Source of the DNA: Escherichia phage 235Ecol030PP
DNA length: 64,000 nucleotides
Strand: one strand, 5' to 3'
Sequence record: PP355091.1
In this document: positions 46,972 to 47,726 of the stretch, piece after piece
Layout: the number at the start of each line of letters is the position of its first letter
How positions within the stretch are numbered: position 1 is the first letter of the stretch
The notes under the pieces: model-generated
Databases searched by the model: none
What the model saw: only the letters and a program-made list of their open reading frames with translations
Told to the model about the DNA's origin: nothing
Program-made: the position numbers and the translations under genes

Positions 46972-47520
46972 ACCCAAGAAAACATCTACTGATCGTTGAT
47001 ACCACTGCAAATCCAAATAACCATTACGCACATTAAACTGATAGAACATATGACAAGGTGGTAATGCCATATATTTAAGTTCAGCTGGATTCCACGCAGA
47101 AACAATTTGACGCCTATCATTTGGCAGTTTTTTAATACGATCAATAACTTCTATAATTTGATCTACACCACCAAAATCACGCCACTGTTTTCCATAAATT
47201 GGACCAAGTTCACCGCTATGGTATCCTAAATCTTTTGCTTGATTTTCGTAATTTTCATCCCAAACTGTTTTGCCTTGGATTAACGAATCATGTTGAATTA
47301 ATCGCAAATCATTGACATTTGTGCTTCCCGATAAAAACCAAAGCAGCTCAGCAATGCAAGCTTTCCAGGCGAGCTTCTTAGTTGTTACTGCAGGAAAACC
47401 TTTAGTTAAATCCCAGCGTAATTTAGTACCGAACAAAGCAATTGTTCCTGTGCCTGTTCGGTCATCGGTTTCGTAGCCATTTTCCAGGATATCTTTAATT
47501 AAAAATTGGTATTGTTTCAT
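46972..47520 (-). CDS. td: thymidylate synthase, exon 1
   Basis: Start set to ATG 47520 (MKQYQ...; track start is TTG); 183 codons ending ...VFLG; 183+103 = 286 aa as T4 TS. Confidence 0.9.
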
Positions 47521-47726
47521 TAGTTCATCCAAGAATATGTAGAAGGATATTTGGCAAAGTTAGGCTTATATCCTAATTTAACCATTTGTTTTGCTTTGCG
47601 AGTAAATCCTAAAGAACGCTCACCTTTAAGATATTGTTTTGGTGTCATAGGCCCTTGATGCATCTGCCGACAAATAAAAAGGGCCATAGCGTTAGGAACA
47701 TCCTTAACTTTTAATTTATTGCTCAT
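47520..47726 (-). CDS. hypothetical basic 68-aa protein wedged between frd and td
   Basis: ATG overlaps frd stop (ATGA); its TAA shares one nt with the td ATG; no recognisable domain. Confidence 0.45.

Follow-up and report, generated by a model that had tools for sequence, protein, structure and literature searches.

A Small Basic Gene of the PHROG 9550 Family Between frd and td in the T4-Like Escherichia Phage 235Ecol030PP

The frd/td Junction of Phage 235Ecol030PP

In the stretch of Escherichia phage 235Ecol030PP analysed here (64,000 nucleotides (nt) of sequence record PP355091.1, hereafter the window), the genes frd and td, which code for dihydrofolate reductase and thymidylate synthase, are separated by a small open reading frame (ORF) of 68 codons, referred to below as ORF68. 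The window belongs to a Tequatrovirus that shares 96-97% identity over 10 kb with fPS-65, Maryam and other phages, and is identical to no record. All three genes lie on the minus strand. ORF68, delimited by the ORF listing and by its match to the protein family PHROG 9550, extends over 47520..47726 (stop codon included). It follows a T4-type allele of frd (47723..48304; 96.4% nt identity to T4) and precedes td exon 1 (46972..47520), which codes for residues 1-183 of thymidylate synthase and is of the T4 type except at its 5′ end, where a Dhakavirus-type tract covers nt 16-48 of the gene (47473..47505, minus strand), possibly to nt 60. An earlier note on this DNA had reported an extra 68-amino-acid (aa) ORF exactly at the frd/td junction, with the strand unstated and with tight coupling at both ends, and the sequence bears out both observations.

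The coupling takes the form of overlapping codons. The ORF68 ATG (47726-47724) and the TGA that ends frd (47725-47723) together read ATGA (47723..47726), and the ORF68 TAA (47522-47520) and the td ATG (47520-47518) read TAATG (47518..47522), base 47520 being common to both codons, an arrangement also seen in the alignments. ORF68 has the architecture of a coupled gene, in that its start and stop overlap same-strand neighbours of the frd-td-nrdA operon and no signals lie between them. No sigma-70-like promoter or terminator-like site was found inside or bordering 47520-47726, in a search that included no formal scan with models of T4 early, middle or late promoters, and the td intron was the sole family recovered by an Rfam scan of 45500-49000.

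In T4 (NC_000866), frd occupies 145109..145690 and td ends at 145112, so that the two genes overlap directly by 4 nt (ATGA) with nothing between them. Alignment of the two junctions shows that the window exceeds T4 by exactly 204 nt, or 68 codons, with AATGA at each end of the difference. The family profile was also searched against six-frame translations of 137 kb of the T4 genome (1-80000 and 112000-168903, which include all early regions); the best expect value (E) was 1.9, compared with 2.8e-38 for the window's own copy of ORF68, indicating that T4 lacks ORF68. The junction alignment and this search, in which the same ORF was looked for in T4 and not found, uphold what had been claimed of T4, i.e., a direct ATGA overlap and the absence of the ORF.

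A Conserved Family of Small Phage Proteins

ORF68 aligns with phrog_9550 from end to end (E 1.3e-45, residues 1-68 on profile positions 1-68 of 68), which assigns it to PHROG 9550, and tblastn recovered full-length homologues in 237 phage records. The homologues are of similar length and under purifying selection. Between the window and Marfa (YP_009850431.1), non-synonymous and synonymous differences per site were 0.128 (pN) and 0.55 (pS), giving a ratio of non-synonymous to synonymous divergence (dN/dS) of 0.14; the ratio was 0.17 between the window and CIP9 (YP_009855949.1) and 0.28 between Marfa and CIP9, the range of 0.14-0.28 being that of between-genera pairs with unsaturated dS. The full-length homologues in so many records, the full-length PHROG match and the low dN/dS argue that ORF68 is not a chance reading frame but, as far as sequence comparison goes, a real, conserved and uncharacterised accessory gene. 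It is not new. The identical protein has been deposited at NCBI under many accessions as “hypothetical protein,” is found on 332 contigs, and appears in UniRef as A0A449C5N9, an “Uncharacterized protein” of Tevenvirinae.

The family is compact. In a collection of 1.84 billion proteins, it forms about 10 clusters when identity is set at 50%; at 90% identity it makes up 40 clusters, none of which contains a domain fusion. A narrow alignment retrieved nine related loci from IMG/VR. All relatives stand alone, measure 58-108 aa and have no Pfam domain; left out of this range were annotations truncated to 42 aa and one repeat protein. The latter, P0026, is a metagenomic tandem-repeat protein of 1402 aa; its six profile matches (E 1.1e-8) fall in low-complexity repeats, are confined to profile positions 9-29, and were judged spurious. 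Nothing credible emerged when ORF68 and 21 family members were scanned against Pfam, NCBIfam and PADLOC; ORF68 had no Pfam match at E <= 10, and the family had none at E <= 10 in a profile search of PDB sequences. The earlier remark that the protein has no recognisable domain is in line with these scans. No paper on ORF68 was found in literature searches by peptide or by frd/td insertions in T4-like phages.

Variable Gene Content at the frd/td Boundary

The insert is present in 135 of the 569 records that match an frd-td query; about a quarter of sequenced T4 relatives have ORF68. This comparison of the junction across T4-like genomes, which the earlier note had proposed as a check, finds the ORF both recurrent and, by the dN/dS given above, conserved. 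In Dhakavirus JS10, Marfavirus Marfa, Kanagawavirus CIP9 and Serratia phage 4S, a homologue directly precedes td, with overlapping start and stop codons. The overlap architecture of JS10, Marfa and 4S is the same as that of the window, and in CIP9 the overlap reads GTGA. The JS10 homologue (NC_012741; 2501..2707 of the extracted locus) is intact and 98.5% identical in aa sequence to that of the window, and is unannotated in the RefSeq record.

A second family, PHROG 1928, contributes to the same boundary. One or two PHROG 1928 genes precede the ORF68 homologue in Marfa, CIP9 and 4S. In CIP9, frd is followed by two tandem PHROG 1928 paralogues (1826..2504 of the extracted locus) and then by the ORF68 homologue; the first paralogue is 44% identical to the gene of Tequatrovirus Shigella phage SHFML-11 (KX130861), and the second falls in one group with those of Marfa and 4S. 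SHFML-11 has only a PHROG 1928 gene at the junction (115 aa, 744..1160 of the extracted locus), which has its own spacers and is flanked on both sides by AAATGAAAYAA repeats, the left one of which reads ATG AAA TAA and resembles a truncated td start. This junction is combined with a Dhakavirus-type td 5′ end, the same as in the window.

The boundary thus contains no insert in T4, ORF68 in the window, PHROG 1928 in SHFML-11, and both families in Marfa, CIP9 and 4S; judged from these genomes, it is a small locus of variable content that exists in at least four states. The direct overlap found in T4 also occurs in Dhakavirus UGJNEcP4, Gaprivervirus VR7, Aeromonas phage 31.2 and the T5-like phage NBEco001, which suggests that the ORF-less arrangement is widespread and probably old. 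A link between ORF68 and the td intron or its endonuclease I-TevI was considered and rejected, because ORF68 accompanies an intron-containing td in the window and also the intron-less td of JS10, Marfa and CIP9.

Origin of the Window's Copy

The ancestry of the junction is mosaic. In frd, the window is 80% identical to JS10; the value rises to 97% across ORF68, as it does across td nt 1-60, and falls to 76% over the remainder of td exon 1. Compared with T4, frd is 96.4% and td exon 1 95.2% identical; of the 26 mismatches in td, nine are within nt 1-60, and past nt 60 there are 0-3 mismatches per 30 nt (mean about 1). Over td nt 1-60, the window differs from T4 at nine positions, from JS10 at two, and from the ORF-less UGJNEcP4 at four (none in nt 1-30). 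The td 5′ allele of UGJNEcP4 (Q-F-LIKDIL...) is that of the window; at the same site, Marfa and 4S have the T4-like Q-D and CIP9 has Q-E. Since a Dhakavirus without the ORF bears this allele, it would be native to Dhakavirus and foreign to T4-type td.

The patch of putative Dhakavirus origin amounts to ~254 nt, comprising ORF68 and td nt 16-48, possibly to nt 60. The Dhakavirus type of this patch and the T4 type of the remaining frd and td point to import of the cassette by recombination from a Dhakavirus-like donor, and agree with the earlier view of a cassette at a gene boundary. The cassette may have come into the lineage of the window through recombination during co-infection with a Dhakavirus-like phage, bringing roughly 50 nt of donor td with it, after which the foreign flanks would have been trimmed by backcrossing. 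The right-hand end of the exchange appears to differ between phages. In Tequatrovirus SP21535, ORF68 is followed directly by a T4-type td, without the Dhakavirus-type tract. A chimeric query that joined ORF68 to T4-type td was 96.6-97.4% identical to SP21535, ECp13 and LF73P3, vs. 92.3% for most other ORF68-bearing records among the matches listed; together with the SP21535 junction, these values suggest that the right-hand crossover point varies. For a second chimeric query, in which an ORF-less junction was joined to the Dhakavirus-type td 5′ tract, the matches listed were filled by ORF68-bearing records, joined as two pieces.

Protein Properties and Predicted Role

The ORF68 product is strongly basic (isoelectric point (pI) 10.26), with 13 lysine and arginine residues vs. 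two aspartate and glutamate residues. The same holds for all 21 aligned members of the family (pI 9.75-10.5, net charge +7 to +16), and this conserved positive charge is compatible with the small nucleic-acid-binding protein that the earlier note had suggested as one possibility. AlphaFold2, supplied with the 21-sequence alignment, predicted helices at residues 13-24, 29-38 and 43-50 and an aromatic C-terminal tail, with a predicted local distance difference test (pLDDT) score of 80.2. No structural match to a helix-turn-helix or other known DNA-binding fold was found. Distant homologues, 33-44% identical, occur in Phapecoctavirus and other large phages from metagenomes, within arrays of small unannotated genes. 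No td lies near them in Phapecoctavirus or in five other metagenomic phage contexts, and no conserved neighbour or fusion partner was seen across seven non-Straboviridae contexts. Because homologues occur away from td and without a conserved neighbour, a function specific to thymidylate synthesis is unlikely. Our best guess, by inference, is that ORF68 codes for a stand-alone prereplicative protein that would bind a polyanion (DNA or RNA), probably in an accessory or host-interaction role.

Weighing the Explanations

Taken as a whole, the account that we hold to be moderately probable is that of an operon-coupled PHROG 9550 accessory gene, imported from a Dhakavirus-like phage and coding for a basic, predicted polyanion-binding protein. 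ORF68, in frame between frd and td, would be translated off the same prereplicative nucleotide-synthesis transcript by termination-reinitiation, at the ATGA shared with frd and the TAATG shared with td, and these two couplings would leave Td expression coupled as in T4. The gene would be dispensable for the T4 life cycle and variable between strains; its product, of roughly three helices, for which no relative of known function or fold was detected, would probably be part neither of thymidylate synthesis nor of a mobile endonuclease. Three points weigh against this account. ORF68 strictly adjoins td in five Straboviridae genera, which makes a td-related role possible. The left recombination boundary lies within ~10 nt of the ORF68 start, where inter-genus homology is poor, and simple homologous exchange does not appear to explain it fully. 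The direction of transfer, finally, is read from two Dhakavirus genomes and one diagnostic td tract.

Were ORF68 instead the ancestral state of this site in Tequatrovirus, the phages without it, T4 included, would have lost it by precise deletion between the flanking AATGA repeats. These stand on both sides of the 204-nt difference, deletion between them would give the exact T4 junction, and ORF68 adjoins td in several genera with a divergence roughly like that of its neighbours. Loss is nevertheless unlikely in our estimation, since the copy in the window goes together with a td 5′ tract that belongs to Dhakavirus and not to T4-type td, since it is 97% identical to that of JS10 between flanks of 76-80%, and since distant lineages, T5-like phages among them, have the direct frd/td overlap. 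A tie to thymidylate synthase itself, either as a regulator of td translation or splicing or as a small Td partner in the deoxynucleoside triphosphate-synthesis complex, would account for the position of ORF68 directly upstream of, and coupled to, td in every Straboviridae genome examined, even when it is separated from frd. We consider such a tie improbable, as homologues outside Straboviridae are not near td, as ORF68 accompanies td with and without an intron, and as T4 and most of its relatives make Td without it.

With regard to function, a small protein made early to neutralise a host factor, in anti-defence or host takeover, is a reasonable alternative, if not one that we would expect to prevail; it would explain the patchy distribution and the spread between genera, and it draws on presence that varies between strains, on the recent inter-genus transfer, and on distant homologues that large virulent phages carry within arrays of small unannotated genes, whereas the family shows no similarity to any known family, PADLOC models included, and has no conserved partner gene. 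A bolder and rather doubtful proposal makes ORF68 the founder of a new small fold, a highly basic three-helix structure with a packed aromatic C-terminal tail that binds nucleic acid or a host factor and confers a selectable advantage. If this were true, the advantage, in counter-defence or in control of nucleotide-precursor gene expression, would explain the recent spread from Dhakavirus-like phages, which has reached about a quarter of sequenced T4-like coliphages. A free-standing mobile gene, of which ORF68 would be a remnant, had been envisaged in the earlier note. T-even genomes do have many seg and mob genes between conserved genes, and the cassette has moved between genera, but a decayed homing endonuclease or other mobile gene is effectively excluded by what the searches returned: ORF68 has no Pfam match at the threshold given above, none of the 21 members matches GIY-YIG or HNH, a search with the family profile gave no similarity to seg, mob or I-Tev genes in the regions of T4 where these lie, and the relatives are complete, stand-alone proteins under purifying selection, with no longer relatives among them. 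The observation made in the earlier note is thus confirmed and its interpretation partly supported. Hardly any weight falls on a chance reading frame within 204 nt of non-coding spacer or RNA element, given that synonymous changes far exceed non-synonymous ones per site, that a protein profile recovers homologues of 33-44% identity in unrelated phages, and that the region contains no Rfam family other than the td intron, and ORF68 no promoter or terminator consensus.

Neighbouring Features

Other differences from T4 surround the junction in the window, all on the minus strand. The td group I intron (46653..46971; Rfam RF00028, 73.8 bits) is 319 nt long and has lost the I-TevI reading frame; by the same rule, the T4 td intron measures 1017 nt. 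Missing from the window are ~689 nt, which cover most of I-TevI. The exact deletion junction of this intron was found in 16 of the 247 records matching a 101-nt junction query. Upstream of frd, an extra ORF of 81 aa (48304..48549; PHROG 3183, no Pfam match) lies between frd and a homologue of frd.1 (48560..48802, DUF5417). Its stop overlaps the frd start, where T4 has a 71-nt gap, and the search of 137 kb of T4 yielded no homologue of it. At the other end of td, the last ~47 residues of Td (~46341..46485) diverge strongly from T4, whereas residues 1-240 differ at only four positions; the C-terminal end looks nearer to that of JS10, a Dhakavirus, and is suggestive of a second mosaic patch. Where T4 has a 20-nt spacer, the window has an overlap between the td stop and the nrdA.2 start (ATGA, 46341-46344).

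Significance and Comparison with Known Systems

ORF68 matters little beyond the comparative genomics of phages. Within that field, it documents that the textbook case of T4, with frd overlapping td, is one of the forms that a small variable locus can take, indicates that a 68-codon gene can slot into a translationally coupled operon with the coupling undisturbed, and suggests that such cassettes pass between T-even genera and take along no more than a few dozen bases of the adjoining gene. Compact, and by nature variable in its presence among phages that are otherwise almost identical, the family would also be an easy candidate for fitness or anti-defence screening.

The closest known counterpart is the family PHROG 9550 itself (UniRef A0A449C5N9, with examples in Marfa and CIP9), which occupies the same site directly upstream of td and from which ORF68 does not differ; literature and PDB-sequence searches found no function, fold or experimental study of PHROG 9550. 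Free-standing seg and mob genes and the I-TevI gene of the td intron resemble ORF68 in that they lie between conserved nucleotide-metabolism genes, vary between strains and co-convert their flanks on transfer. On the other hand, ORF68 has no nuclease domain or similarity and, at 68 aa, is too small. On the side of function, gp55.2 of T4 is a small ORFan protein that inhibits topoisomerase I (PMC4396842). Like it, ORF68 is predicted to be a small, non-essential early-region phage protein that would modulate a host or phage process, although the two have no sequence relationship.

The hyperplastic regions of T4-type genomes contain ORFan cassettes that are shuffled via PeSL promoter/stem-loop motifs (Arbiol et al., 2010, PMC2839356; Comeau et al., 2014, PMC4122927). 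ORF68 resembles these cassettes in being small, function-less by annotation, present or absent among close relatives and exchanged by recombination. It differs from PeSL cassettes in lacking its own promoter and terminator and in being placed, by codon overlaps, within a conserved core operon rather than at a PeSL-flanked intergenic site; the promoter and stem-loop flanks of a PeSL or moron-type cassette were not found, both ends of ORF68 overlapping neighbouring coding sequences. Set beside these systems, ORF68 is a case of ordinary T4-type accessory-gene variation.
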